This document shows, piece by piece, positions 11,940-58,977 of a stretch of 64,000 nt of DNA. The stretch is from contig JAGIQG010000004.1 of NCBI GenBank assembly GCA_024679065.1, forward strand, positions 95,294,001-95,358,000, given 5' to 3'. The position numbers and the translations under genes are program-made. The notes beneath the pieces are model-generated. The model was not told the DNA's origin. It saw only the letters and a program-made list of their open reading frames with translations, and ran no database searches. Positions within the stretch are counted from its first letter, which is position 1. Each line of letters begins with the position of its first letter. The stretch is from Sphyrna mokarran. Its lineage: Eukaryota.

Positions 11940-13500
11940 CACTGCCTTCACAATTCCCCCCATCATCACTCTCTTCATGCTCCCCACCATCATTATCTTC
12001 ATGCCCCATCATCATTACTGTCTTCACACCCTGCCCCATCATCACTGTTGTCATGCCCCATCATCATCACTGTCGTCATGCCCCACCATCATCACTGTCT
12101 TCACACTCCCCACCATTATCACTTCTTCATGCTCCCCACTATCATCACTGTCTTAATGTCCCCATCATCACTGTCTTAATACCCCATCACCATTGTCTTT
12201 ATGCCCCCCACCATTGCTGTCTTCATGCCCCCCATCATCACTGTCTTAATACCCCATCATCACTGTCCTCTTGGCCCCATCATCACTTCTTAATGCCACC
12301 ATCATCACTGTCTTCATGCTGCCATCATCACTTCTTAATGCCCCCATCACCACTGTCTTTACGCTCCACATCATCACTGTCTTCATGCTGCCATCATCAC
12401 TTCTTAACGCCTCCATCATCACTGTCTTTACGCCCCCCATCATCGCAGTCTTCATGCCCCCCATCATTGATGTCTTCATCCCCCCCCATCATCACTGTCT
12501 TTCGACCCCCCATCATCACTGTCTTTACGCCCCCCCATCACTGCTGTCTTCATGTCCCTCATCATCACTGTCTTTACGTTCCCCCATCATCGCTGTCTTC
12601 ATGCCCCCCATCATCACTGTCTTAATACCCCATCACAACTGTCTTTATGTGCCCCATTATCGCTGTCTTCATACCACCCATCATCACTGTCTTAATACCC
12701 CATCACAACTCTCTTTATGTCCCCCATCATCACTGTCTTCATGCCCTCCCATCACCACTGTCTTTCTGCCCCCATCACCACTGTCTTCATGCCCCCATCG
12801 TTATTACCGTCTTCATGCCCCCCATCATCACTGTCTTCATGCCCCCCCATCATCACTGTGTTCATGCCCCATCATCATCACTGTCTTCGTGCGTCCATCA
12901 TCATACCCCCATCATCACTGTCTTAATGACCCCATCGTCACTGTCTTCATGCCCCCATCATCACTTCTTAATGCCCCCATCGTCACTATCTTAATGCCCC
13001 CATCGTCACAGTCTTCATGCCCCAATCATCACTTCTTAATGTCCCCATCATCACTGTCTTAATGACCCCATCATCATCACTGTCTTTGTGCCCCCATCAC
13101 CATTGTCCTCATGCATCCCATCATCACTGTCTTAATACCCTATCATCACTGTCTTCATGCCCTCCATCATCACTGTCTTCACGCTCCCCCATTATCGCTG
13201 TCTTCATGCCTTCCATCATCACTGTCTTCATGCCCCCTATCACTACTGTCTTTATACTCTCATCATCACTATCTGCACGCCCCCCATCATTATGGTCTTC
13301 ATGCCCCCTATCATCACTATCTTCATGCCCCTCCATCACTGTCTTAATGCCCCCCATTATCATAGTCTTCATGCCACCATCATCACTGTCTTCATGCCCC
13401 CATCATCATTACTGTCTTCATATCCCCATTATCATCACTGTCTTTGTGCCCCCTTCATTACTGTCTTCATGTCCTCCATCATCACTGTCTTCATGCCCTT
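11940..13500. repeat. Minisatellite, ~20-26 bp unit CCCC(C)ATCATCACTGTCTT(C/A)ATG, roughly 65-70 degenerate copies
   Basis: Directly visible tandem array with strong C/G strand skew; produces spurious His/Pro/Ser ORFs. Confidence 0.97.
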
Positions 13501-15465: not shown

Positions 15466-16034
15466 TTTGTGTGTATGTGGGGGGTGGTGGTGGCAGGAGG
15501 ATGTCTGATTGAGAAATGTGTGAGAGTGCATGTGGAGTTTTGGAGAGAGAACTTGTATATGTGCATGTATATGTGGAAATGAGGGAGTGATGATGTGTTT
15601 GTCTTAGCGTCTTGGGTTTCTCACTAATCCTCATCACCACACACTAATACACACTCACACCATAGTTGTGGATGAATGATTTGAGTGCCTTGAGACTGAG
15701 AGTGAGCCTGGCACACACATTCTGACCTTCTCATACTCTAATGGTCATTTTAATTAATTACTTCTTTTTAATCTTAATTTTTGCTATGACATTGCTTTAT
15801 TCTTGTTCCTTAACAACTTCAAACTTTTTTTTGGAAAATCAGTTTAAAGTTGTGCCAGATCTTATATTTCTGAAAAGAAACGGAAATCCTACCCCTCCAG
15901 CTTCCCCCAAAGCTGAAAGGTCTGCCTTATATCATGTACTTTGAGCAAAACCTGAAAAGAAATTTAACCTAAATATTCTGTATTGTGCCATAGTTCTCTT
16001 ACATTAACAAATAAAAATTATTGTTGTTACATAC

Positions 16035-16709
16035 CATGTCAGTGATTCCTAGAGAAGCAAGTAGCGCCTTAGAGTCAAAGTGTACATGGCTGAATTGTCT
16101 TGAAAATGTCCCAGTTTTACGTGATGAATTTTGACTTTGATCTTCTAAAGGCCTTTCCAATCCATCGCTGATATCAGTTGTTTGTAGATTAAAATTACCA
16201 TCGATTGAATTTTCAAGTAGAAAATCTTTGACATGTATTGCTGTCAATTGACTTCGAAATCCCTGCTGTTCTCTCCTGTGTAGAAGTTCCATGAAAGCCT
16301 CAAGGCTTTTCCTTCTCTCATTTTGTGCAGCATTGTAACGTAGCTTCTCCACTGATAAATCATTAATTGTTTTATCTCCTATGCTGTCCCTCATTTTGAT
16401 GGATGGTGGCTGAGAATAATCCTCTACAATTATATCGTCATTGTTATCAGCATGTTTCAAATGTAAGCTACTTTCAAAATGTTCCATATCAAACAGACCA
16501 ACATCTTCATGTATTATTTCCTCGGTTTCATTGACATTGTCTTCCCTTTCTGTTTCCTCTTCTTCCTGGTCAGTATGTACTCGATCTGCTGGCACATCGT
16601 GGGCTACCAGACGCGTTATTAATTCTGTTTCACTGGTCACATCTTTTAGAAGTTCCACTTTAGAAATGTCAGGGTTGAACAAATTTATGAAGGAGTTTCT
16701 AGCAATTAC
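16035..16709 (-). CDS. fsip2: FSIP2-like gene, downstream coding exon (675 nt, 225 codons)
   Basis: Acceptor tgtgtaacag|GTA at 16709 and donor ATG|gtatgt at 16035, both phase 0. Starts VIARNSFINLFNPDISKVELLKDVTSETELITRLVAHDV, which continues the previous exon in frame and resembles FSIP2 (AVARNSF..KPDITKVELLKDV..LIVRLVAHD). Confidence 0.88.
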
Positions 16710-16808
16710 CTGTTACACATAAATATGCATTAGATGTTTTTTTCAGCAAGATTGAAACAATGCAGTAATTCTTCCCATTATACAGCAAATCATAGAATAG
16801 AATTATAA

Positions 16809-21597: not shown

Positions 21598-22974
21598 TAG
21601 TAAGAAATCTCACAACACCAGGTTAGAGTCCAATCAGTTTATTTGATAGTAATCTCACAAGCTTTCAGAAAGAGTGTTCCTTCATCAGGTGTGTGGAAAC
21701 TTCTAATCAGAGAAGGACATATAAAGTCACACACAGTTTACAGAATACTGATCAGAATGCAAGTCTTTACAGCTAACCTGCTATTCAAATTTTAAAGATG
21801 CGAACGGAGATAGCGCTAGCATTGGTTAAAGAGATGTGTATTGTCTCCAGACAGGACAGTAAGTGAGATTTTACAAGTCCAGGCAAGTCATGGGGGTTAC
21901 AGATAGTGCAACATGAACCCAAGATCCCAGTTGAGACTGTGCTCATGTGTGCGGAGCTTGGCTATCAGTCTCTGCTCAGTGACTCTACGCTGTCGTGTGT
22001 CGTGAAGGCTGCCTTGGAGAACACTTACCCGAAGATCAGAGACCGAATGCTTGTGACCGCTGACGTGATTGCCAACAGGAAAGAAACAGTCTTGCCTGAT
22101 GATTGTCGAGCAATGTTCATTCATCCGTTGTCGTAGCATCTGCATGGTCTCCCCAATGTACCATGCTTCGGGACATCCTTTCCTGCAGCATATTGGGTAG
22201 ACAATGTTGGCCAAGTTGCAAGAGTATGTGCCACATATCTGTTGGATGGTGTTCTCATGTAAGATGATATCATCCATGTTGATGATCCAGCATGTCTTAC
22301 AGAGGTTGCTGTGGCAGGGTTGTGTGGTATTGTGTCACTGTTCTCTTGAAGGCTGGGTAGTTTGCTGCGAACAATGGCCTATTTGAGGTTGTGCAGTTGT
22401 TTGAAGGCAAGAAGTGGGAGTGTGGGGATGGTCCTGGTGAGATGTTCGTTTTTATCAATGATGTGTTGAAGACTCCAGAGAAGATATCGTAGCTTCTCCG
22501 CTCTGGGGAAGTACTGGATTACGAAGGGTACTCTGTCCACCATGTCCTGTGTTTGCCTTCTGAGGAAGTCGGTGCAGTTTTGTCAAGAAGCAGAGACTGA
22601 TAGCCAAGTTCCGCTCACATCAGAAAGACTTTAACCGGGATCTTACGTTCATGTCACACTATCTGTAACCCCCATGACTTGCCTCGGCTTGTAAAATCTC
22701 ATTTATTATCCTGTCTGGAGACAATACACATCTCTTTAATCTATGCTAATGCTATCTCCAATTAAATTGTCTGTATCTTTAAGACTTGAAAAGCAGGTTA
22801 GCTGTAAAGACTTACATTCTAACCAGTATTCTGTAAACTGTGTGTGACTTTATATGCCCTTCTCTGATCAGAATCTTCCACATACTTGATGAAGGAAAAC
22901 TGTTTCCAAAAGCTTGTGAGTTTACTATCAAATAAACTGGTTGGACGCTAACCTGATATTGTAAGACTTCTTAA
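21598..22974 (-). mobile_element. Penelope-like element, 5'-truncated, with GIY-YIG endonuclease and ~380 bp inverted terminal repeats
   Basis: ORF 21897-22277 has NIVYPICC...AWYIGET...LRQRMNEH...EQRLIAKL (GIY-YIG). 21598-21980 is the reverse complement of ~22588-22974. Confidence 0.92.
21656..21691 (-). ncRNA. Minimal type I hammerhead ribozyme motif in the Penelope terminal repeat
   Basis: Minus strand CAC-CUGAUGA-aggaacacucuuucu-GAAA-GC-UU-GUG: intact core, stem I CAC/GUG, palindromic stem III AGCU, as described for Penelope hammerheads. Confidence 0.7.
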
Positions 22975-35985: not shown

Positions 35986-37388
35986 TATCTAGGGGGGATG
36001 ATAATAATGTTCATGCATGGTTAAAGCATGAGCAATGAGAACTTGGATTAACACTCAACAATATGTGAAGAGATAATTTTGTGGTTTGAACAATCTCACC
36101 ATATAGAAAAAAATTATTAGCAGAAACAAAAATGCAAGTTGACAATGTCAGCCAACTTGGCAGAAAACCGCAGGGTGCCATGGCACCAGGGGAAGCCATG
36201 ACCTGAAGAGCACTCAGCAGGACAGGGCACAAAGATATAGGAAGTCAGAGCTGCAGACCAAGAACTTAAAAGAATGCTACCAGTTCTGGGGAAAGCACCC
36301 TCAAAAGCGATGTAAGTTTAAAGATTGAACATGTTTGGCTAGTAACAGAAAGGGGCATATTAGGATTAAATGCAAAGCCAAACAGAACCTATCAAGGGAT
36401 AATTTAAAAAACTACAACTCCGGTGCATAATTTAGAAAATGACTCCAAAGAAGAATCTGAAGTTTACAAGATTAAACAGTATTAAAGTGAACAAGTCAGC
36501 TCTACTTGTAAATGTGCTAATGATGAACATTCACTCACTAAGAAAGGAGGTGGATATAGGGGCCACTGCCACTGTTGTAGGAGAGTCGATGTATTGGTAT
36601 TTGCAAGGGTAAGATACAGCCTTTGAAATTAAAAAGCACAATGGCCATGTACACTGGAGAATTGTTGAAGATACCAGAGCAGCACCAGTAACCTACCAAA
36701 ATCAATCAGCTCAGTTACCTATCATCATGGTCAAGGAGCAAGAGCCAAGACTCATAAGCTGAGATGGATTCTGTCTGATCTGATTAAATTTGTTGGAGTT
36801 CTTCAGCATTAATGAAGGCAACTTTCATGAAATGTTGAGGAAGTATTTCAAAACAAACTGGGCAAGATGTAGGGTATCAAGGCAAACATCTATTTGATCC
36901 TGAGTCAACAGCCAAGTTCTACAGAGCCTGACAAGGCCCTATCTTTTATACAAAAAAGCAGTTGGAAATGATTAAGTCTGTGCAGTTTTCTGACTAGGCT
37001 GCCCCCACCATTCTGTGGTTAAGCTGGACAGGACTATTGGGATAAAAAGAAGTTATAAGCTAACCAAGCAGCATAACTGGATCAATACTCTATACTGAAA
37101 ACTGAAGACTCTTATGCCAACTTAGCTGGAAGGTTGACTTATACAAGTCATGCATATCAGCAGATATAGTTAGATGAAACATCTAGGGAATTTGTAACAA
37201 TCAACACACACAAAGGCTTATATCAATAAATTTGGCTGCCATTTGGAGTATCTTTGGTATGTGCCAGATTCCAATGTACTTTGGAAAGTAGTTTTTTTAT
37301 TTAGAAGATGTATTAACTATGGGAGCTTCTAAAGAAGGACATTTAGCAAATTTGAAGGAAGTGTTGAAAAGATTGTAAAATGTAGGGG

Positions 37389-38225
37389 TGATGCAGAAAG
37401 GCTAAAGTAAGCTAATAGAAAATACATAATCATGATTGAGAATATTAACATAATACTGACTTAAGAATGAATGATCTTAGGCTATAGAAAGCACTGACAG
37501 GAGTTGCCATTATAGAAGACAGCTCCAACTGAATAACAAGTACTCCTTATTTAAAATGTGTATTTTGAATCCATAAAATCGATGCAGTTTGCTTTTAGAA
37601 TATATTTTGTGAAATTTTAGCCAATAACAAGATACAGCAGGGTTTAATGGGATGAGGTAGCAGGCAGGGCTTGCATCTTGTGAGACAATGGTTCTACTGA
37701 ATGCAGCCACTTTATCAGCAGTTGTTGGGAACAAAACAGTTATCAGTGCTGGTTTGATAAGTAGCTCAAAACTGTTAATACAGGTGCAAGGCAGATATAA
37801 GGATTTTCTCAGAGTTGGACAAGTGTCACGTGGGTTTGAGTTTGTGGGAATCATTCTCTCATTTCACCGTCTAGTGTCCTAACTTACTGGACAACCAAGG
37901 GAAGCTGACATCCAAAATTAACGACATAAGATCTCATGAGGTCAGGATGTAAACTGTTATTGGGAGAATTTGGTGTCAGAGATGATTATTGACTGATTTC
38001 TATTAATGTTTATAGGATAATACCTACGGGAAAGATGGGAAATATGATTTTGAAAATGTATAATTGCACTCTGTTTTTCAGAGTGATATTGGGCTGACTG
38101 AATTCTCTACCTAGGGTCCTAGGATTCTCTTATTTGTTTGTATGGTTAACAAGATCACATTTTATGAGTCTCTGTACTTAGCTTAAGTTTAGCAGTGTGT
38201 AGCCTCAAAGAAAATCCCATCAACA
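37389..38225 (+). repeat. ERV 5' LTR
   Basis: Collinear with 43573-44385, with many substitutions and some indels. Confidence 0.9.
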
Positions 38226-39959
38226 ATTTGGCACTGCGGACGTCACTACCTTCAGGTGACAGGACATGTCTCCTAAGTAGGGATAAATATATTTTTATAC
38301 TATCCACACCAATTAGTTAGAGGAGTCCCTGTCAGGCCAACAGGACCATAAGTTGACTCACCTGAATCGATATTATGGGTTGTGATATGCAGTGTTACTA
38401 AACTGCACTAAAAGTGGGATGGGGTGGGGCAGGGGCGGGGGTGAGGGAGGTGGGAGGCATGGATGGACTCATGCTACTTCCCTGCAGAGTGAAGCAAAAA
38501 CAGCATGCAGTAGGGTAGACATGAGAAGTTAGGGGCACTCAATACAAAGCAACAGGAGGGAATAAGACCCCAGATTGCTTCGCCCCAGGAAGAACTTAAA
38601 AGAGAGAGAGAGAGCTGCACCAAGAGGTGACAGACATTATCAGCTAAACACAGAGGTTGCATTAAGGATTGCTCAAGAGAAAAATGAAAGTGCTCAAGAG
38701 AGAGCACAAGAGATCCCTGTGAAGGGGGTGGAAGGACTTAAGGGGTTAAAAAAAGAGAGAATGTGAACAGTACTCAGGCTATGACATACAAAAAGAGAGT
38801 GCAGATTATACAGTTTGGAGCATCCTCGTGTGGATGCTTGAGAATTGCAAGTAAATTGTGAAGTATTTTTAACGGGATTGAAGCAGACACTTTGAAATCA
38901 AATAGGGTCTTGAAATTCCTTAATTTTGAGAATGACCGATGACCAAAGTCATTCTTGAAAAAAAACAGGAAAATAATTTGACAGAGATTTGAGCTCTGCT
39001 ATTTTTGGAGAGAGTATTTACGTATACATTAATCTGGAAGGTAGTCAGAATTGTGTTTGGAAAGTTATAAGGAGAATTAGGTAGTGAAATTAACATGATA
39101 GTCTTAGTCTAGCAAATATGATTGAGAATTTGGATATTTAAAAGTGATTATGATTAACAATGAAAAGATAAAGTTTAGAATTTGGTTCAGAAAATATGGA
39201 GGTTTTAGATGATGATGTCCATTTGAGAAAATATACTTGTTCCGCTTTTTGAAACAAGTAGAGAGTTAACCCATTCTGTCCCAGACAGAATGGATTTTTG
39301 TGTTTTAAGATTTTGCAGCAACTTTAAGGATTCAAAAATTCATTGGTAGATCTTAAATATAGTAAAACTTATTAGTTTAAATCAAAATCCAGCAGAGGGG
39401 GAGACAGAGCATTTAGTGAAGAGTTCCATAAGGTACAATGGGAGAGTGTGTTTGACAGAATAATACAACAAAAAATGAGGGAAATAATCCTGTGGAATAA
39501 ATGAACATTAAAGGAAAGGAACATATCTGTGATGTACAGAAGAGATGTGGGAAGTGAACAGGATAATAAAAAGTCAAAGATAATAAACAGAGTAGGACAG
39601 AATTAAAGGTGGAATTCATTTGCTGGGTACAGAAAACAACAATGCTAATAAAAAAGAGACATTTAAAGGGATTCTAAAAGGTAAAATACAGTTTAGGTGA
39701 TAACTATGGATGAAGGAACAAGTTATTTTTTAAAAAAAGAGATAAGATAGACACTAATGAACAGTTGAAAAGCCACAACACTGTTTTCTGAATGTGAGAC
39801 AATTCTGACATAGAAAATGTGCTGTTAAGCAAGCTAACTTAACCAAATGATACCATTTAAGATAAAGAATGACCAATCAAAATAAGTTACTACTTGGAAT
39901 CAAATTGAAAGGTTTGATTTCTGTTTCAAAGATGTTAATATGTTATAGAATTCAGTAAA

Positions 39960-41920
39960 AAAGGCAAAGTCCCAGAGGACCGGAAGAAGGTTCAAAGACT
40001 TCTCAGTGGAAAGAGGGAAGACAAATATTGGGACATTTTAATTACTGTACGAATTTTGTAGAATATTATGCCGTACTTGCAAATCTTGACAGGAACTGAT
40101 TAAGGGAGGAAAAGCTAGCAATGAGAAAATAGTATGGGGCAAACACAGAGGAACAGGCTTTTCCAATTTAAAACAGGCCATAGTAAAGGTCCCTGACTTG
40201 GGATTGACAGATGTCAAGAAAATAATGCACTGCAAACTGTGGTAGTAACCCAAAAATATGCAGACAGATTAAGACCAGTGGGGTATTACATCTCTTTTGC
40301 CAGGAGAGAAATACATAGAGATCAGCAGAAATGTAACAGAAAATTCTGCAGTGCAAGAAACAAAGCACGAATGTGTAGTGGAAGTGACAAGGTCAAATGA
40401 TGGGCTAACAGAGAAACCACTCACAGGGAAAGGAGTGATTAATCTGTCTGTGGATAGAGCCAGAAGATATGTTAATTACGAATCCCGCTCAGCATGGGAG
40501 GTGGTGAATAGTGAAGGAACAGTGATTGCAGGAGAACAACTCCCAGCAAGTAATTCAGTATAAGTGACAGAGTTGCTAGCTTTAACCAATACTTACCTGG
40601 CAGGAGTGAAACCTTGATCAAACAAGTGGTTCGCCAAGGATGAGACTAGCCCTTTGCACTTCGGGTATGCTGATGCTTGTGAAGTCCCCAAATGCGGGAT
40701 GCTCAGGAATTTATTTCAAGAACTCCATAGTCCCTTAGAAGCAGCAATAAGAGAGGCACACACGAAAATTATAACGCAAGCCTAGTGGGGAAATGATTAG
40801 GCAGATGAAACTGTGAGAGAGCTGTTAGAACAGAACACTGAAGGAATTCAAACAACAAGTGTGGCAGCAGCGCAAGTCACAGAATTCACAGACATAGATG
40901 TGAAACAAAGACAGGAACAGGCATCAGAGAAAGAGAGACAGGAATCGGAGAAATGTGAAAGATGGAGAATAATAGCCCCAAAAGTAATACAATAGACCTT
41001 ATTGGAGGCATATCATGGATTAGTACACAGGAGTAGAGACCGCATGTACAATTTGATAAGGGGATGTTGGTGGTGGAAGAATATAGGAAGAGATGTGGCA
41101 AGTTATTGTCAAAGGTGCCTAGTGGAATCAGATCATCCCTGCGGGGTTAAGATGGGAAATCAGCCAGGAACTAAAGGACTGTGGAAGAATTTACAGATGG
41201 ATTTTCAGGGCCCTTTCCCAGAATGTAAGGAAAGACCTATTGCCTGATAATCATTGATTATCCAGTGGATAACCATTATTACCCAGTGGATAGAAGCATT
41301 CCCATGTAGAGATGTTATAGCCAAAACAGTGGCTTTGATATTAGCAAATGTGATAATACCTAGGTGGAAAATGCCTCTTCAGTTAGATTCAGATCAAGAA
41401 GCATACGGAGAAAGTTTTAAGAGAGATCTGTAAAATGTTGGGAGTAAAGCAAAGATTTCACATATCATACACCACAGGAATGGTAGAGCAGATAAACAGG
41501 ACACTGAAAAACAGTCTAGCTAAGGCCATTTAGAAGAAGGAACAATTGGGTGCGGGCTCTGCCTGTAATATCGTTATGACAGGAAACTTCTCAATCTAAC
41601 TGGTGGAGGAGAACTTGAAATCAGCCAAGGAGTAGTGTTTCAGTGCATGAGAGACTCAAATAATTGTTTATATTCTCTTAAAAGACAGATGGTTATCCAG
41701 AAGCAGCAAAGAGACAGGACAAAACTAGCAGAGGAGAACATTCCTAAGTTACCTATACCGGGGATAAGCTAATGGTGAAACTCATGACAGACAGAAAAAG
41801 GCTGGGGGGTCAAGTGGGAAGGCCCTTATGATGTGATCATTGCAGGACAAACATGTGCACTCATTGATGAGAAATTTGGGCCATGGTGGCGACACCAAAA
41901 TCAGTCAAAGCCATATGAAA
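39960..41920 (+). pseudogene. pol: ERV pol remnant (RT thumb/connection, RNase H, integrase)
   Basis: ILGHFNYC, AFSNLKQAIVKVPDLGL, VDRARR..ELLALT, HHCC HGLVH..WWW..YCQRC, LQMDF.GP, WIEAFP, IIPRW.MP.QLDSDQ, GMVEQINRTLK, WEGPY. Confidence 0.9.
40589..40704 (+). pseudogene. RNU1: U1 snRNA-derived sequence (nt 1 to ~116, lacking Sm site and stem-loop IV)
   Basis: ATACTTACCTGGCAGG...TGATCA...GTGGTT...TTGCACTTCGG..TGCTGA...CCCCAAATGCGGGA..CTC is collinear with vertebrate U1 from its first base. Confidence 0.93.
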
Positions 41921-42329
41921 TGGTAAGTATCAGTAGATTACCCCAATAGATTCATAATCATACTGAACAGGGGGTAATAATGGCTCTTGTAGTAGCTTAA
42001 GAACTTCGCTGGAGTAATTTGAAATTGTAGATTAGCAACAAGGTTAAGTCAGATAATGGTGCAAAATAATCAGGTGGATATCAAGGGGAAGAGCTAGAAA
42101 TGATTGAATTGATAAGGAACTAACTTAATGTCACAAGGCATCCTACTTAAATTTTATAGAATTGTGAGGATTCTTGAAAATCAAGACAACTAAAGTTCAA
42201 AACTGTTCCCCAGTTGCAGAACGATGGGACTACACTGAACGCAATGATGAAAAGACCACATCAAGTATACTATCATTGTAACACAAGATAATTGCATTTT
42301 GCTTGTTTAACATTGATCAATGGTCATGA

Positions 42330-43400
42330 CTTATAAGAAGGGAGAATTATGGCAATTGTTATAATGAATGTATGTGTTTCCATTCTTCTAGTACAGAAAA
42401 TGTAGATAAATGCTCAAATGGGACCAGCATCTAAGACCATTCAACATTTTCCTCAGAAAACGTAGGTTTATACTGAAATTCGGCACACACATAAGGACAT
42501 TACATACTAGGATTTTCAAATTGGGAAAAAAGGGGGAGGTCATGACAGTGAGGACTTTGCAGGAAGGTTAACTATATGAAGGAATACACACTTGTTTATG
42601 ATTAATAAGATCAGCTCCTAGTTTAGTTTTAGAGGAACCAGCATCGAAACTGAGAAAAATCTACTGCACAGAGAATTTAGAACGTTCAGGGGAAAGTTTA
42701 GGTGTAAGCGAATGTGACTATACAGTTCTGCCTGAGTCCATCCAGTAATGACCAGCCATGTAATACATTGTAATGCTTTAGTGAAGCTAACACATATCCA
42801 GCTTTTAATAGTACATTGGATTTGTGGCAATAGAGCGTATGCTTGGCTTCCTGTTGAATGCAAGGTACCTTGTTACCTTGGAGAAACTTCTGTACATAAA
42901 TAAATCCCTCACCTACCAAGATGTTGGCGAGCTATAACATAGACAGAATGATTTTTTGGCATAATGTTTTCCCAGTATGGAGTGGTTAGAACAATGCAAA
43001 AGATTATAATTGTGTGCTCAATTTGAAACAAATTGCCAATGATACAGCAACTGCTCTCACAAAGATCAATGGTGAGATAGTTGCCATGCATACAGAGAGC
43101 ATAGGATTACATTTTGGCAGCAAGGGGAGGGACAGGTGCAATAATTGGATCGGAATGTTGCACTTACATACCAGACAGTTCAGTAAACATCACTAATTTG
43201 GTTGTACACATGAAGAAGTTGGAGAAACTCAACAGCCGTGAACATTTACTTTAGGTGGTTCACATTCAGGCTGGAAAGGCTCTTTGGGAATATTGATCCT
43301 GTAAGGAATTATATTACTTTTTATTGTGATCCCTAGTGTTTGTAGTAACTGTATAACTGATCAAATGTGGGCATGCACAACTTTCTAAGTCCATGAAAAG
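42330..43400 (+). pseudogene. env: ERV env remnant, gamma-type TM
   Basis: WICGNRAYAWLP, decayed furin site RCWR|AIT (~42920), heptad LKQIANDTATALTKINGEI, ISD plus CX6CC relic DYILAARGGTGAIIGSECCTYIPD (43105-43175), hydrophobic TM ~43290-43360. Confidence 0.88.
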
Positions 43401-43572
43401 TACAGTGATGTACTTCAGTGATAGCAGTCAAGGTAAGAAAATGAGACCGCAGAAACCAACTCATCCTTTAAGAACTACTGGACATTAGTCCAATATTAAG
43501 GACTAATAACTTAGTTAGTAAGAAATATCTATTTAGTGGCCTTAGTTGGTCTTGGCAAATTGGAGGGGGGAT

Positions 43573-44385
43573 TGATAAACGGGATTAAATTCGGCGAAGA
43601 GAAAGTACATCATCATGACTTGAAAATATTAACACAATACTGACTTAAGAATGAATGATTTTATACTATAGGAAGCGCTCAAAAGAGCTGTCATTATAGA
43701 ATAGCAAGTATTTCTCATTTAAAATTTGTATTTTGAGTTTATAAAATGGGTGCAGTTTGCTTTCAGCCAACAGCAAGATAAGTAGGGTTTGATAGGATAA
43801 GGTTGCACTCTGGACCTGCATTCCAAGAGACAGTAGTTCTACTGAATATGGTCATTTTATCAGCAATTATTGGACTATCAATTCAGTTTGATGAATAGAA
43901 CTATATAGCTCAAAGCTGAAAACATAGGTGCAAGGCTGACAGAAGAAATTTCTCAGTGTTGGACAAGTGTCACTCGAGTTTGAGTCTGTGGGAATCATTC
44001 TCCCTTTTCACCATTCAGCATCCTGCATTGCTGGACAACCAATAGAAGATAACATTCAAAATTAAGGACCAATAAGATCCCATGAGATCAGGATCTAAAT
44101 TGTTATTAGCTGATTTGTATTAATGTTTATTGGATAATGCCGATGGGAAAGGTGAGAAACATGATTTTGAAAATATATAATTGTCCTCATGCAGTGATTG
44201 TTTTTCAGAGTGATATTGGGCTGTCTGCATTCTCTACCTAGAGTCCTGGGCCGCTTTACATTATTCTCCCATTCAACTGTTTGGGTCATAAAGTTACATC
44301 TTAAAATCAGTACACTGAGTTTCATGAGTCTCTCTATTTAGCTTAAATTTAGTAATATATAACCTCAAAGAGAATCCCATCAACA
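43573..44385 (+). repeat. ERV 3' LTR
   Basis: Follows the PPT; direct repeat of the 5' LTR. Confidence 0.9.
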
Positions 44386-45876
44386 AGGGTTATGCTCAAG
44401 AGAGAGAATTATAATTCCAAGCCCACAAAGTAACATACTTAGGATTCAAGGTTGACACTGAAAAGCTGCATCCAATAAGGAGAAGTTAAGGTGATCTAGG
44501 CGATACCAGCATCCAGAAATCATTCTTAGCGATGGTGAATTACTATGAATGATTTATCCCCAATCCCCTGTCCACATTGCTGGCATCTTTACATGTAGGA
44601 AGTAGCAAAAGCAGCATTGGAATGAGCATAAAAAGGAAGCATTTGAACAGGTTAAAATTACATTTCAGCCTTCAAGCCTCTTGGTCCATTTTGATCCCAC
44701 AAAAGAAATAGTGCTTACCTGTGACTACTTGTCCTATGGAATCAGAGCATTATTGTCCCACAAATGTAAGGTTGGATTAGGGAGACATATCACTTTTGCC
44801 TCAGACACTGAGAGGACCTATTCTCAGATTGAAAAGGAAGGCTCGGCTATGATTTATGGGATAACAAAATTTCATCAGTACATTTACGATAATTACTCAT
44901 CAGAAGCCCTTTTAGGTTTGTTCAGAGAGATCAAAGCCATTCCCCCCATTGCTTCAGTGAAGGTTCAACATTGGATTCTACTGTTAGCAGCATGCAACTA
45001 ACACATTCCAACATAAACTTCCCTACTGCCTCCTTCCTTTGCCACAAAGTATTCCAATGCTCCCAGTACCCCCAGAAATTATAATTATTTTTAACTTTCT
45101 GGACAAATTACCTGTCTTGTCCTGATAAATCAAGTTATAGACCCAAAGGGACCCCATTTTACCTGAAGTCAGACAAATTGTCCTTCACTATTGGCATCAC
45201 AACAATTCTGTACAATTTTGACATTTTCAAATCTGAAAGGATGAGTTGAGTTGTGAGAATGGAGTGCTGTAGTGGGGAGCCAGGTGGTAATTCTTGTTCC
45301 TGCTTGGATAATGGTATCACAAGAATTGCATTGTGTATATCCCGGCATAATGAAAATGAAAAAGTTATGCATTGTGGCCCAGGTGATAAGAACATTTAAG
45401 AACTTGTTAGATGGTGTGATTCCATGTTGATTTTGCAGGTCCCTGCATGTTTCTTCTCATTATTGATACTTACACTAAATGATTACACATTCATGAGATG
45501 AAGATCTCCTTAACCACAACTGATAAACTAGGGCACACATTTACCACACATGAGTTGCCTGAAGTGCTGGTCTCTGACAATAGGACTTCATTCACAAGCA
45601 ACAAATTATGCAAACTAATGGGATATATTATTTTGGAACAGTCCTCTATCACCCGACATCAAATGAGTTAGCTGAAAAGCTGATCCAGATATTTAAACCA
45701 AAATAAAAGGCTCTGCGCCTTTACAACTTCAACTGACCTGCTACTAATGAATAGAAGAACTCCTCATGCCACAATAGGAATTGCTCGTGAGAAAACATCT
45801 TTGGACAAGACTTGATTTAATATTTGTAAAATTAACAAGGTTGGAAGCAAAACAGAATGCATAGATACCTACAGAT

Positions 45877-50902: not shown

Positions 50903-52950
50903 GATAGCACATGTAAAGCCTGCTCGGTGTTGATCCTGTTGATGAGTTAGATAAATGTGCGAGACTGGTGAATGGTCTGTGAAGCCCACTAATGCCATTC
51001 AAATTAGACGGTTTACTTAATTATTGAGTTGCCCTCCACTCTGGGTGAGAATCTGATTTGGGGCCATTGGGGTGGGTTGGGTGAATCCTGACAACCCTCA
51101 CACTAGTTAGTGAGTTTTGGCCAACAGTCTATTCATCAGGGCATCAGGATTTCCACAGACTGTCTGAGGGGGTCACAGAATTGCTTCCATAGGGTTGCAA
51201 AACATTCTTATCATTGTCTTATATAATTATTTTTCCCCAATTTTCCTGTTTGTTTGTCTGTCTTGTTGGTCATCAGTTCCTCATAGCTTTTACATGCACA
51301 CATTCACATGCTTTCTATGATGTGATGGCCAGAAATGTACACAATATTCCAGCTGAGATTTAACTAGTATATTACATAAATTCAGTATAATTTCCTAGCA
51401 GTTGTATTCTATGCCACTATTAATGAAGCTTTATTAACTGTTTTCCATTTGTACTGCCACCTTCAATGATCAATGCACATATACACCCAAATTTCCCTGC
51501 TTCTGCACCCTTTTAGGGGGTCATCTTATGAGGAAAACCTGAACAATGCTCCCAATGAGTTACATGCAAATTATCTTTAATTGGGTTAACTATTTGAATT
51601 AGATTCTCACTATCAATGTATTGTCCATGTTAGGCCCTTCCTGCCATGCAATTAATACAAAACATTTTTTTGCTGCCATTGGATTATTAATCTGATGGGG
51701 CCTTTCACACAATTACCCATGTACACCCACCATCTTGTTTGCTCCAATGGTCTCCACTAAATTCTATCCTTAGCAAGTATAGTGATGATGCCTTGTAACA
51801 TACTGGATAAAACCTCTGAGCCAAAAACTCCAAGTTCAAGCCACACTCCAGAACTTGATGGTCAAGGATAGTACATTTAAAACTTAGCCATTTGCACGTT
51901 GATTGTCAATCTGCAAATCCTCCCAATACACCTATGGCAGATAGTAAGAGTAGGAGAGACCTCAGGCCAGCCACATTTGTTGTGGAGTGACTCATTTTGA
52001 GCTACAGCCTCCAGTTTCAGGTTAGTGACCTGTTCCAGGAAAAACAACCTATGAAAAGCAGTTGGAAGGATGAGCTTTGTCCACCTCATGCATCTCTAAA
52101 AGCAGCAAGTCTTCTAAGTATAAGACTATGTATACTGAAATACTGCCAACAATTAAAAATACCTCAGTGACATAAGAGTCATTTATTACATCTGACTGAT
52201 CTTATGATTTATACCTGAAGAGAAGAAAAGAAAATCCAGACATTATGGGCCCGATCTTCAGTCTTAAGAGCAATTAAATTATTAATGATCTCAACCATTA
52301 TCAACTTTAACAGCAATTGGATTTTGTGGTTTCAAAAATACAAGATTCTTCTTAACAGCAGAATAATACATTGTCCTTATGAAACAGGAAGGGGAGATTT
52401 TCTTCTAGCTGTACTATCTGAATGACTAGTAGAGAGTCATATCCTTGAAAAATAGGCTGATTATGATTTTCTTGCCAGAGTCACACTTCACATGATCAGC
52501 CCAGCTATCCACCCAAAAATCTAGCACAAAATATGAGTGCAGGTACAGATTAAAGAGATGTGCAATAGCATTCCTGGCTGCCCCAACATCAGGGTCAGCA
52601 TCAACTTGAAGCTTCAGAGAGAATCTTCATTTATTTGGTACATGTTCACATGTTGGTAGAATGTTTGTTATTTTGTGGTGACATTGGTGGTGCATCTTGG
52701 CAAATGGGTAGATGATAGTATTATCTCTATAATTCTCCATCTGTGGCCAGGGTATCAGAGAAAGCATAATTTTCCCAATGAAAAAGAGAGAAAAGTGAGG
52801 GAAAATGTCATGCCATATTGTCATTGTACAATTCTTAAACTGTTAGTTTGGGAGATAAACCTCAGAACTGATCAGGAAATGGTACACAGAAGAAACAAAG
52901 CAAAACAAGACACCATGATAAAAACAGATAACTTTTGTTTTAGAACATAC

Positions 52951-55900
52951 CTCTTTATGTTTTACATCTAATCTCCCATGGATGTCCAGAGAACCTCTTC
53001 TCAAAGATCTTCGGTGTATTGTATGATTGAATTGCGTTTCTGTACCAACTTTTGGAGGTAGTTCTATATTTATCATAGATGCATTACGAAGTTCTTGCAG
53101 GTCATGGCCAGTTTGTAACAAGCTTATTTCCTGGAGCACCTCAATTGGCTGGGTTTTTATTGCAATAACAGACAAATGATCTGAGATGAGCTCTGGATCT
53201 ATGTTCAGTTTTGTTTCTCGCTTACGTGGGACAATCTTCACGGGTACTTCTTCCCCATCAGAGCCAAAAATTGAACCAAGTGTATCTTCACTGAAAGTTT
53301 CACGAAGCACATTCTCTGCTTCACTTGAAGTTGTATGTGATGTTGCTTCAGTTGAAGATGACTCAGATACCATATTGCTTGTATGATCTGTAGTGACTAT
53401 TTTAGGAATTGGTGGTTCGGTATCAGTTTTTTTACTTAACTTACTTGTACTAGGAACAGCAAATGAAATTTTTCGTTGGGAGGAACTGCATAATTCAGGG
53501 CTGTCTTTTAAAACGTCAATAATATTTGTTACAATTTTTTCTGAAAGCAAACTTAACAGAGAACGAGATGGCTTGGTGAGACATTTCTGCAAAAGCGTAC
53601 TTGCAACACGTGAACAAATGTTAACCACATCTTCCTTTGACAATGCTTCAGTGAATTCATCCAGTGAAAGAGAACTTTCACTTGAAAACTCAGTGCCATG
53701 TGGAGTTGCTGTTTGCTGTTGGATTGCCTTTCTATATTGAATGGCCTTGGAGCTTTGTGAATTCTGATGAGCTGTGTTTGATAATATATTACCTAGAACT
53801 GTTTGAACTAAATTATCTGCTTCACTACTTATGCTTGAGGAACGTGTCCTTTCTGTTGAAGAAGAAGAAGAAGAAAGCTTTTTCTCTGCAAATCCTTGTG
53901 CAATGGTAGGAGTTTTATCTCGAGAGCTAATATTTACAGAAGCTTGTAGTTTGCCAGGTTTTTGTTTCCTTAAATTATCACTGAAAAAAGAAATTTGTTT
54001 GCTATCTTTGTCAGATGATTCCGTAGATGAAGGTATAAACAGCGAGGATGTTGAAGATTCAGAGTAACATTTTAATTCTTGCATAACATCAGAAACAATT
54101 TTTTCTGAAAGCAAATTTAACTGAGAAGAATGTAAACTCTCACTTGTTTTCTCGGATGGTTCAGGAAAAAGTGAATCTATTAATTGTGAAAAAATGGAAA
54201 TCAATGCCTCTGTTAACATCTCCTCAGACAAATCATCTAGTGAAACAGAACTTTCACTAGAATGTGGTTTATGTTCACCTGCCTCTAAGGACAGGAGCTT
54301 TTCAGAAGGAATACTAGCCCATATATTACACAAAACTGATTGTACTAGACTTTCTGCTTCACTGCTTCCTGTTGAATAAAGTGGTTCTTCAGCTGAAGAT
54401 TCAGAAAACTTTCTGTCATCAGAATGTAGTGGACAAGTACAGGGTCCATCATATGAAGTTATAATTTTGGAATCTGATGGCTCAATGGCTGACAGTGTAC
54501 ATACACTCTCTTTGTCAAAAAACATTAATGGGCTGCTCTGTTTGCCAGAAAACTTACAGACATCAGTATGTAAAGGTTCAAGCTGACAAACACATGGTGG
54601 CTCAAAATTACTTTCTAATCCTTGGTAAGTATTTGAAATAACTGTATCTGAGTACAGATTTAACTGAGAGGTATGTGTAGTTTGATCAGATGTAACTTCT
54701 GGTTTTAGTAAGCCTGAATCTGAAGTATGTGACAAACTTTTCGTTCCTTCCATGCACAACATGTTATGAAGTCCATCAACTGACTTAAAGCTGTCATCAT
54801 AAAGTTTAGTGTCACAAACTGATGACATTGCAGGCCATGATGTTACAGTCTCTTTTCGAGTTAATGGACATACTGAATCACAGCTAACGTCATCAGGAAC
54901 TCTATATTCATGTTCCTTATCTTGACATATGCTTTCTTTTTCTTCAAGGTATTGAGGTTGAAATTGAGTTCTAAACTCATTTTCCTCATCTTGACAAATG
55001 TCTTCTTTTTCACTTAGGTATTGTAATTGTGGCTGGTCAAAAAATAAAGCCTGTTTTTTGTATTGCATAATTTTCTGTATTATCTCTTTTGTTACAAGTT
55101 CCAGGAAAAAATCTTGCAGTTCTCGTCTGGTAATATCATTTTTAAACTTATCTGCTTCTTTTGTCCCACATAACTGGTCTAACTGACTCAGATATATACT
55201 ATACTTTACATACTCAGTGATAGACTTCATCACATGGGGTAACAATATTACATCAATATTTGCAGACAGTTTAGGTGCTGAACAGGTGCATTTAGCATCT
55301 TGTTTCTTATATTCACAAATCATTTTTGCTTCCCCACAGACCTGTTTTTCACTTGAGGGTAAGGAACATGTGTCAAATTCATCAAACATTCCAGAAACAT
55401 GTTTGTCAACTCTTTGATCTGATAATGAGTCAGGAGGTTCAGAAACTACAGATTCTGAACATTGATATTTATTTTTTTCTTCTAAGATGAAACGTACTAA
55501 ATTACTTTCCAGATCGTCATTGAGTGTAACACGTGCTTTAACAAATGGACATACTCCACTTTCTTCATTTGATTGCTCAGACTTGAGGACTGAATTAATT
55601 ACATTTTCAATCAACGTTTCAGACATTTTTGTTAAGCCAGCTAGACCTGGCTCATGATAACAGACTTCTGATGATTCCTCAGTCATACTATCCGCCATTG
55701 ATGAAATGCTACTTGAATATACTTTTTCACAAACAGATTCTTGTGGTATACTGAATGATATTCTCTTTTTACTTGTCTTTGAACTACTGGAAGAATGTTC
55801 ACTACAGATTGTTGGTGCAGCAGTATCCTTTGAGCAAGTATCAACAAATGACATTTCACTAATCGTTGTCTGCGAATGGCTCAATTGCATTTCATTTGTA

Positions 55901-58364
55901 GATTCAGAAAAGCTAATAACGTTTTGAATTTGTTCCAAAATAAATCTGACAAGGTCTACTGAAATTAAATGAAAATATGATGCAACATCTTCTGTCCCAG
56001 CATCGGCTGATGTGTTTTGAAAATCCACTGGCTTTCTGAGAACTATCTGAGTTTGCATCAGTGGTCTCACAGAAAGAATTTTCTTGACTTGTTCTGTGAC
56101 ATCATTTATAAAATAAATTGAAGAAAGCATACTAGCAAAAGAAGTATGTTGCGTTGTATTCTTTCTAGCAAATGGACAAGTATCACCAGTGTCTGAATGT
56201 GAATGAACTACAAATGAATCATCCAAAGCATACTTCCTTTCTACCTCTGCAACAACTGCATTCACAAGTTCTTGAGAAACATCATTCACTTCGCTTTCAA
56301 GTGGTATGAAGCTTAACGTGGAATCTATCTTCTCATGTAAAATGTCAATAGTTTTAAAAATAATATCTTGCAAAACTTCTGGAGTAATCATGGCCTCAAG
56401 ATCCTTTATGTGAGAGGAAATCAGTTTTCTTTCACCATCAATAATATTTGTGATTTCCTGGGAAAATTTTTCATCACTTAAAAGCTGTTGTAAGGCAAAC
56501 TTTATGAGTTCCTCTTTCATGCGTCTTGCTGTGTCAGTAGTCTTCTGTTCTGTTAAATCTTTAGAACCAGAGATGAGCATCTCAGTTTTTGTTTGTAATA
56601 TTTCATGAAGTCGTTTTGTGACTTGATCTCCAAATGAGCTGCTGAACTTTCTTCCATCAGGTGGTGTTCTGTTTTGGTTTGTTTCTTGCCCTGATTCAGA
56701 TGTTAGTCCTTTATAGGCTGTTAATGATTTTTTAATTTCATAATAAATAGCATTTAAAAAATCTGGTGAAGTTAGACCTAACTTACATGATTGAGATACT
56801 GAGCTTGCCATATCATTGAACAGTTTTGTAAAGCACTCAGTGAAATCTGAAGTACTGCCCGATGTCTCTGATGATTTATCGGCACACAACTGTTCCCTGT
56901 CAAATTCAGAATTCTGTTCAAATGAATTTAGTGAGAGACCAATTACTTTTTTGATGTGGTCTAAAACAGTTTTTGTAGTATCTTCTGAAACAACATCGAG
57001 GCAAGAATCAATTAATTCAGTATTGGATTTATCATCAATCAATGATGTTTCTGTATACCTCCTTTTTTGCCCTGTAACCATTTCTGAAATTTCACATTTA
57101 AGTTGAGTAGTAAGTAATTTTATAAGTTTTTCATCAATGACGTTGAACGATTCCTCAGATTTATCATCTTTGTGGTCAGGTTTATCATCAAGTGAATCAT
57201 TATGAGTAGGTTTTTGATGTGGTTTGCTTTGGACAGCAATTTTCTCTGTTTTTTCATCTTTTATTACCTTTATCTCTTTTACATTTTGGAAAACCGGGAA
57301 CTTTTCCACAGCTTGATTAATGGAAGGTTTTTTGGAAACACTGGTTTTCTTTTTTGTGATAAGTTTTTTTGATTTTGGAATTGCTTCTGGTAAGCGTTCT
57401 GGTCTGTTTCCTAATTTTTGACTTTCTGACGACAAGGATTTTGTGGGACTAACTGCAATCTTAGTCAAAGATAATCTGCGCGATTTGGGCAGTTTTTTAA
57501 TAATAGTAGTTGGTACAGGAATAATATTGTCTGGAGATCTTTGAAATGCATCATCTGAAAGTGACTTTGTATCTTCTAATCTTGTTGGCTTTCCTTTTAC
57601 AGATACTTCAGTGGTGGGTTTTGGCTTTACGTCTGTTAGGCCTTTTGCAGCCATATTTGCATTTGACTTCTGCATTTTACCTCCTAAAATATTAGTAATT
57701 GACTTCATTACTATGTCAAAGAGCTTCTCATAGTCTGATCCTGGTGCCGTTGAACTGACTGACATACCATCAGCAGGTTGAGCTATTCCAATCTGTGAGT
57801 CAGTTGTGGTATGACTTTGGAACACAAGACATTTTTTTAACAGGCTCCTAACTAGCCCTTCAGCAACTCCAGTTATTAATAACGAAGATATGTGTGCATC
57901 TTGGGGACTTTGCTTCACTGATTTTAAATCAAAGGAAGCTGATGTCATAGATATTTGTCCTGGTTGGAGCCTTTTGATATCAAACTTTCCATTTGATGAT
58001 GAAATAGACGCATCTACAATTACTTTCAAGACTTTGTTTACAATGTCATCTGAGACAAGATTGATTTCTGGACTTGTTACCAACTTGTTTAATTTTGCTA
58101 CAGTTGAAGGTGATTTTATCCAGATCGATTCAATGTGTAATTTATTTGACGTAACGGCATCTGTTATTGCTTTTACTGCATAAGGAGCTTTGTCTTGTTT
58201 CTGAGCAGAAGCTTCTGAGGCAGCTGCGATAGGAGGCAGAATCTTATTTGTCATCAGATCAGCCTGTGACAAATTGTTAGGCCTTTGTTTCACAGTTGCC
58301 ATTTTTCCAGTTGAATCAACAGTACTAAACTGTTGATGGCTTCCCAAATCAAAGTCAGTTTTCT
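52951..58364 (-). CDS. fsip2: FSIP2-like gene, giant internal coding exon (5414 nt, ~1804 codons)
   Basis: Uninterrupted 1834-aa S/E/K-rich ORF (52843-58347). Acceptor tctctttccttgaacag|AG at 58364 lies just after an in-frame TGA. Donor GAG|gtatgt at 52951 (phase 0). The C-terminal ELISDHLSVIAIKTQPIEVLQEISLLQTGHDLQELRNAS...GRLDVK resembles the mammalian FSIP2 C-terminal domain as I recall it. Confidence 0.88.
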
Positions 58365-58977
58365 CTGTTCAAGGAAAGAGATCAAATGTTTCAACCTTAC
58401 GTCCATAACTGTATTTGAAAACTCAATAATAATTAGTGAATCAAGTAACATTAAGACTATTTCACAAATAGTACTGTAGTAGATTAACACCAACATAATA
58501 GATTAGTCTTCTTTGAATCTCAGACAGTAAAATTAAACACAACTAATTAGATGCCTGAGAAAAGGTTTATGAAATACATTCAATTCAATGGAACATGTAT
58601 GTTAGTAACAGGTATGTCAATTACATCCCCTTACAATAGTGGTAGCCCTGGAAATGAGATTTATTTTAGCATTTTGTTGAATATAAGTTATAATGTATAG
58701 GGATTTGTATAGTTTTATCCATAAACAATTATAGATATGAAAGTTTAATGTCTGTTTTTGGTAAGTTATTGGAATCCATTAAGGGCAGAATGGCTGAGCA
58801 TTATGAAGAAATATGGGATAATTATAGTGAAAGTCACTATGGATTTCTCAAGGATAAGGCATGTCTAACAATCCTAGAATGAAACAAAATCCTGCAGATG
58901 TTACAAGTCTGGTATAAAAACAATACACGTTGGATAAACTCAGCAGGTCTAGCAATATCTGTGGACAGAGAAACAGA

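Follow-up and report, generated by a model that had tools for sequence, protein, structure and literature searches.

Part of a spliceosomal RNA lying within an endogenous retrovirus (ERV) raises the question of how it arrived there: was it written in by reverse transcriptase (RT) before the provirus integrated, or did it land later, as host U1 retrocopies do? We address this question for a stretch of 64,000 nucleotides from the Sphyrna mokarran genome (the window), where the original prediction had placed U1 snRNA, from nt 1 to about nt 116, at 40589-40704 inside the RNase H region of an ERV and in viral sense. Both Rfam and an alignment with U1 genes confirm this placement.

A U1 piece within a decayed provirus

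The Infernal check with RF00003 that had been proposed gave a match on the + strand beginning at 40589 (cmscan in E-value mode; E 5.2e-13, 54.8 bits). This lies below the Rfam gathering score of 69.5 because the 3′ part of U1 is missing; hence, a scan of the window at gathering level returned no U1. In an ungapped alignment, U1 nt 1-116 correspond to 40589-40704 with 84-86% identity to six intact U1 gene copies from the same genome. The piece begins exactly at nt 1 and runs in viral sense (+ strand, like pol and env). Structural positions of U1 were taken from the Rfam alignment, the MFE fold of a U1 gene having been set aside as it did not recover the known structure. According to this alignment and the comparison with U1 genes, the Sm site, stem-loop IV and the 3′ box are absent. 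Intact U1 genes share an upstream element and run on into the Sm site and stem-loop IV; at 40589 the upstream element is lacking, both flanks are viral, and no poly(A) tail was found. With the features of a functional U1 gene all missing, the piece is not a working U1.

The host provirus is about 7 kb long and carries U1 inside RNase H. Its features are as follows:

37384-37388, no strand: left copy of a probable 5-bp integration duplication (weak, 4 of 5 bases being shared with the right copy)
37389-38225, +: 5′ LTR (TG...CA), from the LTR-LTR alignment, with ends compared with relatives L092 and L099
38229, +: TGG start resembling a primer site, after the 5′ LTR
38226-40401, +: decayed leader, presumed gag-like region and presumed RT thumb/connection remnant, with many stops and frameshifts
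40402-40588, +: RNase H, N-terminal part, including the first Asp (40453) and the ELLAL Glu (40570), from translation and a Pfam RNase_H match on relative L094
40589-40704, +: U1 snRNA nt 1-116, comprising the 5′ splice-site-binding end and stem-loops I-III, in place of ~149 viral bases (Rfam, gene alignment, relatives)
40705-40830, +: C-terminal part of RNase H with the presumed last Asp (40804); viral sequence resumes at 40705
40830-41930, +: decayed integrase with zinc-binding domain, core and GPY motif (Pfam PF17921, E 5.5e-10 on the window; rve on relative L094)
41930-43500, +: decayed env, from translation
43562-43571, +: polypurine tract, from sequence
43573-44385, +: 3′ LTR, from the LTR-LTR alignment
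44386-44390, no strand: right copy of the probable integration duplication, from sequence

Some of these labels are motif readings. The gag-like and RT thumb/connection labels in 38226-40401, where Pfam gave no match, are of this kind; 40804 is taken to be the last catalytic Asp from the RNase H fold, and a motif near 43130-43170 in env is presumably of the CX6CC transmembrane type. Compared with its relatives, the provirus is ~190 bp shorter near 40200-40290 and has several further deletions of at least 40 bp, roughly one per kb.

The RNase H of relative L094 best matched that of XMRV/MLV (E 7e-12), and all nine PDB matches were retroviral RT/RNase H entries. Together with the layout of LTR, primer-site-like start, polypurine tract, integrase and env, this match points to a possible place among class I (gamma/epsilon-like) ERVs. 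Unlike class I ERVs, the provirus is only ~7 kb long and short between LTR and RNase H, and YxDD occurs in none of 13 family copies (the window and 12 relatives); V-D-G-[ATS] is present in 7/13 and F-T-D-S in 5/13. Pfam matched neither RT palm nor protease in three frames of the window and two relatives, in a heavily decayed region, and three PDB searches with the RT region of L091 gave no match. Of these results, only the motif count bears on RT, and it suggests that the family was probably non-autonomous before U1 arrived. It had been proposed that capture of U1 made the provirus defective. Defective it is, but U1 was probably not the cause, because the family apparently already lacked a normal RT active-site motif. 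Across the window (38226-40400) and L091-L102, the family is short between LTR and RNase H and keeps remnants of RT thumb, RNase H, integrase and env, which would fit a possible non-autonomous class I family.

First-look searches with three proviral segments gave 57, 63 and 104 candidates, the best paralogues being 71-78% identical to the provirus. The family is rare, since the provirus interior had no match in a random sample of 60 ten-kb stretches. Scans of 12 ten-kb relative loci found no other snRNA, tRNA or 7SL in any of the 12; two contained miRNA-model matches below the gathering score, on palindromic or simple-repeat DNA.

Several other elements were observed in the window. Large open frames lie on the minus strand at 52843-58368 (1841 aa) and 15999-16712 (237 aa), the second of which matches Pfam FSIP2 (E 1.5e-15); the provirus is probably antisense in an intron of the FSIP2-matching gene. 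On the host strand, the intact 5′ end of U1 would then read as a perfect consensus for a splice donor at ~40589-40599, a putative site. A Gypsy-type RT/RNase H remnant at 44391-45001 (Pfam PF17919, E 4e-18) adjoins the 3′ LTR, and the provirus may have inserted into it. At 21601-22973, a long inverted repeat (arms ~380 bp) surrounds a frame with a weak GIY-YIG match (E 0.006), which we take to resemble a Penelope-like element remnant, and a degenerate tandem array of 22-25-bp units occupies 11950-13500.

Replacement, joints and relative age

Both flanks of U1 were compared pairwise with 60 relative stretches, 46 of them distinct by junction context. Both flanks reached the joints in 25 of these 46 contexts, which were usable; the remaining 21, with a flank missing or interrupted, were dropped. 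At the U1 site, every one of the 25 usable relatives has 130-154 viral bases (median 145, commonest 149), in agreement with the ~50 codons of viral sequence that had been described as absent. None of the 60 stretches contains U1, the highest local score of 31 being no more than noise, and no target-site duplication (TSD) was found around the piece. U1 is a replacement of viral sequence without target duplication; the earlier claim of no poly(A), no TSD and no U1 gene flank holds in all three parts.

In a relative, the lost segment carries F-T-D-S, aligned with Y-T-D-S of the XMRV/MLV RNase H. The YTDS Asp is therefore lost, as predicted, but the claim that the RNase H catalytic core was replaced is overstated: this is one of four catalytic acids, and the first Asp, the Glu and the last Asp remain. 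By translation, the motif E-L-L-A-L-T precedes U1 and R-N-L-F-Q follows it in the same reading frame, the swap being frame-preserving (net -33 nt). Selection for a read-through protein was rejected, as the ninth codon within U1 is a stop in this frame.

Of the six positions of U1 nt 1-6 at the 5′ joint, five agree with the commonest viral letter, and a transition at the remaining one would allow G:T pairing. A match to the U1 start at least this good occurs at 68 of 18436 background positions in the same copies (0.4%). The 3′ joint has 2 contiguous matching bases, 3/4 overall.

To estimate the relative age of U1, we took the host U1 gene as source, using at non-CpG sites the state that most of 33 retrocopies share. 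From this source, the piece differs at 10 of 99 non-CpG sites. The two LTRs differ at 149 of 777 aligned sites (19%; K2P 0.226, non-CpG 0.213), and half of the LTR-LTR distance predicts 9.8 differences in U1, or 10.6 after base-composition correction. The 95% interval of the U1 count is 4.8-18.4, equivalent to about 0.45-1.9 times the age of the provirus. Two of the ten differences are each common to 6/33 other copies and may be old U1 variants, which would leave eight. LTR pairs of three relatives are younger (K2P 0.14-0.16), given which the LTR distance in the window may be inflated. The estimated age of U1 fits its presence at integration, with a wide interval that also allows insertion in the first half of the life of the provirus.

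Presence in related organisms and the background of U1 retrocopies

A junction-spanning search, in which the best 40 of 147 candidates were scored, returned the window itself, 35 U1-only matches and 4 flank-only matches; among the scored copies there was no second U1-bearing provirus. Sequences from related organisms do bridge the joints. Of the public runs, X2, X3, X4 and X7 were compared with the window; X5, X6 and X8-X13 had small word shares, and X1 may be the source sample. Both joints lie within X3 record 8, which covers 40517-40962 and differs at 26 of 427 letters, and X4 record 15 spans U1 and the 3′ joint, with 19 other letters in 356. X4 record 14 extends 30 bases into U1, a base fewer than our bridging rule requires, and X2 record 4 reaches 15 bases; among the matches listed for X7 there was no bridging piece. 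Joints that skip U1 were absent among the matches listed, which come from close relatives only. An assembly artefact was rejected, as contigs of other organisms bridge the joints.

At 93-95% identity, far above the 70-78% level of paralogues, the X3 and X4 contigs are most likely orthologues. U1 would then predate the split of those lineages, an event roughly one third as old as the integration. The orthologue divergence of 5-8% is roughly one third of the LTR distance and says nothing on the first two-thirds of the life of the provirus.

To judge the locus, it must be set against the U1 copies elsewhere in this genome. The U1 query gave 390 first-look candidates, with searches favouring long and young copies. 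After 14 gene-like loci and one duplicate were set aside, 46 non-gene U1 copies were examined, and 29 of these are tailless. Tailless U1 retrocopies are abundant genome-wide (e.g., L004, L015-L029, L144-L161, L183-L190). Their 3′ ends fall at nt 127-142, at or just past the Sm site, in 28 of 29 cases, the exception being L006, which ends at ~116-119; seven of the 29 start at nt 1. Few U1 copies show a TSD above the shuffled null; L006 has a TSD.

The empty site could be read for those copies that lie in repeats (5/48; 43/48 were unreadable). Three of these five have duplications of 9-16 bp, and two replace target DNA. In L004, a sense U1 of nt 1-129 (L004:1501-1629) without TSD replaces 10 bp (8/11 comparisons), just after the catalytic motif of an older LINE RT remnant, which we take to be CR1-like. 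This U1 has changed at 1 of 89 sites, whereas the remnant is 71-77% identical to its relatives in 9/11 comparisons; U1 was therefore added long after the LINE inserted. In L187, U1 replaces 35 bp (one comparison). TSD-less replacement by U1 cDNA thus occurs in this germline without a retrovirus.

Two further observations concern U1 in this genome. In L184, L197 and L026, the right flank of U1 begins at once with a very high-copy repeat (129-149 local matches), and these may be U1-SINE chimeras. A second U1 gene cluster, L112-L119 (C994, 6.0-6.2 Mb), is ~89% identical to the main type and has its own shared flanks.

Among the vertebrates screened in PMC5322556, as its account describes them, tailless retropseudogenes came only from mammals and a lizard. 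These copies (Group III snRNA copies) are described as having 8-35-nt TSDs and arising by internal priming, often at A-rich sites (PMC5322556, PMC4476161). The U1 piece is like them in being 5′-complete, 3′-truncated and without poly(A). Unlike them, it has no detected 8-35-nt TSD but a loss of 149 bp, and its 3′ end falls short of the A-rich Sm region; the missing TSD could have been erased by a later deletion. Cytoplasmic U1 forms without Sm site and stem-loop IV are described in PMC3936765, and such forms are a possible template for insertion by either a retroviral or a LINE RT, as well as a possible source of the 3′-end cluster.

Origin of the U1 piece

On balance, we think it probable that U1 was written into the element by RT before integration, through a double template switch ("patch repair") during minus-strand synthesis. 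U1 RNA would have been co-packaged with the RNA of the element, the enzymes of the particle probably being supplied by a helper virus. RT would have stalled just 3′ of the lost segment, moved to U1 at the base of stem-loop III over 2-3 matching bases, and copied to the 5′ end of U1, where the template runs out. Six base pairs, five of them Watson-Crick and one a G:T wobble, would then have joined the DNA end to viral RNA ~149 nt further upstream, allowing synthesis to continue. A single germline integration of the patched DNA, followed by neutral decay, would complete the sequence. We favour this account because it predicts several features at once: U1 in viral sense and copied through to nt 1, a good match where RT returned, no constraint on the 3′ entry point, a large loss and an age matching that of the LTRs. 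The 3′ end of U1 at nt 116, outside the nt 127-142 cluster of tailless copies, and a loss of 149 bp, which exceeds the control losses of 10 and 35 bp, also argue for it.

RT capture before integration, as originally proposed, gains support from new evidence, namely the deletion, the five-of-six microhomology, the agreement of U1 and LTR ages and the probable orthologues with U1. The combination of a start at nt 1, no tail and no TSD, in contrast, does not discriminate here, because many U1 retrocopies in this genome share these features. A TSD, an intact viral sequence or an orthologue without U1, all named earlier as outcomes that would speak against capture, did not appear. Other findings weigh on the opposite side. 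The lack of a second copy among those scored leaves a patch before integration unproven, L004 is built alike on a smaller scale and was added once its host element had integrated, and L006 also ends at ~nt 116 and has a TSD. While U1 and pre-U1 reads occur in HIV-1 virions, the account in PMC4931115 gives mature U1 as poorly enriched there. By chance, a rough 0.07 U1 copies would be expected in the family (390 U1 candidates, about 100 family copies of 5 kb, a 2.77-Gb genome), with a higher figure for all proviruses.

Alternatively, a double-strand break that arose after integration may have been patched with U1 cDNA made by a LINE RT, without endonuclease cleavage, resection having removed ~149 bp and microhomology having joined both ends. 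We regard this as a close rival, though less probable than capture. With hundreds of U1 copies landing at random, it starts from a higher prior, and the background fits it well: some 390 candidates, 29/46 copies tailless, few TSDs above the null, and target DNA replaced in two of five readable copies (10 bp in L004, 35 bp in L187). Human endonuclease-independent L1 insertions are likewise reported to lack TSDs, to be 3′-truncated and, in 18/21, to have deleted target sequence (PMC1920257). The U1 piece resembles these insertions in all three respects and in its microhomology. As characterised there, however, the inserts are L1 sequence, some with pieces of cellular RNA, at an empty orthologous site, whereas no empty orthologue was seen here. 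Repair allows each feature of the locus but needs several coincidences: the sense orientation (1 in 2), an age near integration, a loss 4-15 times larger than in the two controls, a 3′ end outside the usual cluster (as in 1/29), and a five-of-six match at exactly nt 1, where 7/29 tailless copies start.

The odd 3′ end and the loss would be explained in one step if a tailless U1 retrocopy with a TSD had inserted and a later deletion of ~160 bp had taken the last 13-17 bases of U1, the right duplication and adjacent viral DNA. Other deletions of at least 40 bp in the provirus, roughly one per kb, and a 3′ joint with only 2-3 matching bases, as often in deletions, agree with such a history. We nevertheless consider it unlikely: the deletion must begin within ~15 bases of the U1 end (an estimated 1-2% at the observed density), and the probable orthologues already carry the same 3′ joint. 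Least probable is that the U1-carrying provirus founded a subfamily through spread in trans. Loss of RNase H need not stop mobilisation in a family that is apparently non-autonomous, and each search scored the best 40 candidates. This part of the original prediction is not borne out, as U1 occurs in 0/60 relative stretches, the window alone covers U1 plus flank (best 40 of 147), and the nearest paralogues are 76-78% identical, with no close sister copy among those scored.

Capture by RT has precedents in laboratory retroviruses. Patch repair with host sequences through fortuitous microhomology, including 7SL patched into a recombinant, is described in PMC4997597, which gives as examples the 7SL recombinant of Hajjar and Linial (1993) and the tertiary-template insertions of Duggal et al. 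(2007). As in the recombinants described there, a host RNA piece in viral sense bridges a non-homologous joint between viral flanks, without duplication and with microhomology at the jumps. Unlike those laboratory and clinical cases, the locus is a germline fossil with U1, and its pre-integration timing is inferred. The same joints at independent integration sites, which would be sufficient for this assignment and are not required for it, were not found among the scored copies. According to PMC4476161, Giles et al. (2004) reported a few old human snRNA copies linked to LTR elements; for some of these, an origin at the time of the LTR insertion has been proposed. The locus is like these in being an old snRNA copy in an LTR element; in comparison with those cases, known by summary only, deletion, joints and relative age are measured here. 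Our literature search turned up no account of U1 in place of ERV pol sequence; it did not reach the full text of Giles et al. (2004) or supplements, which may list comparable human cases.

The locus is single-copy and decayed, with no sign of function, and its own biological weight is small. We lean towards reading the U1 patch as an ancient germline fossil of retroviral patch repair, in which RT moved onto co-packaged U1, ran to its capped end and moved back. At best, it is a germline fossil of a process known from laboratory retroviruses. Patching with host RNA and small RNAs in virions are known from cell culture, and natural, datable proviral examples are scarce. This reading predicts that small-RNA patches in proviruses are sense-biased and as old as the LTRs, unlike those in DNA transposons. 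If true, packaging and copying of spliceosomal RNAs would already have been a property of retroviruses in this vertebrate lineage, and proviral small-RNA patches could be mined as a record of old virion contents.
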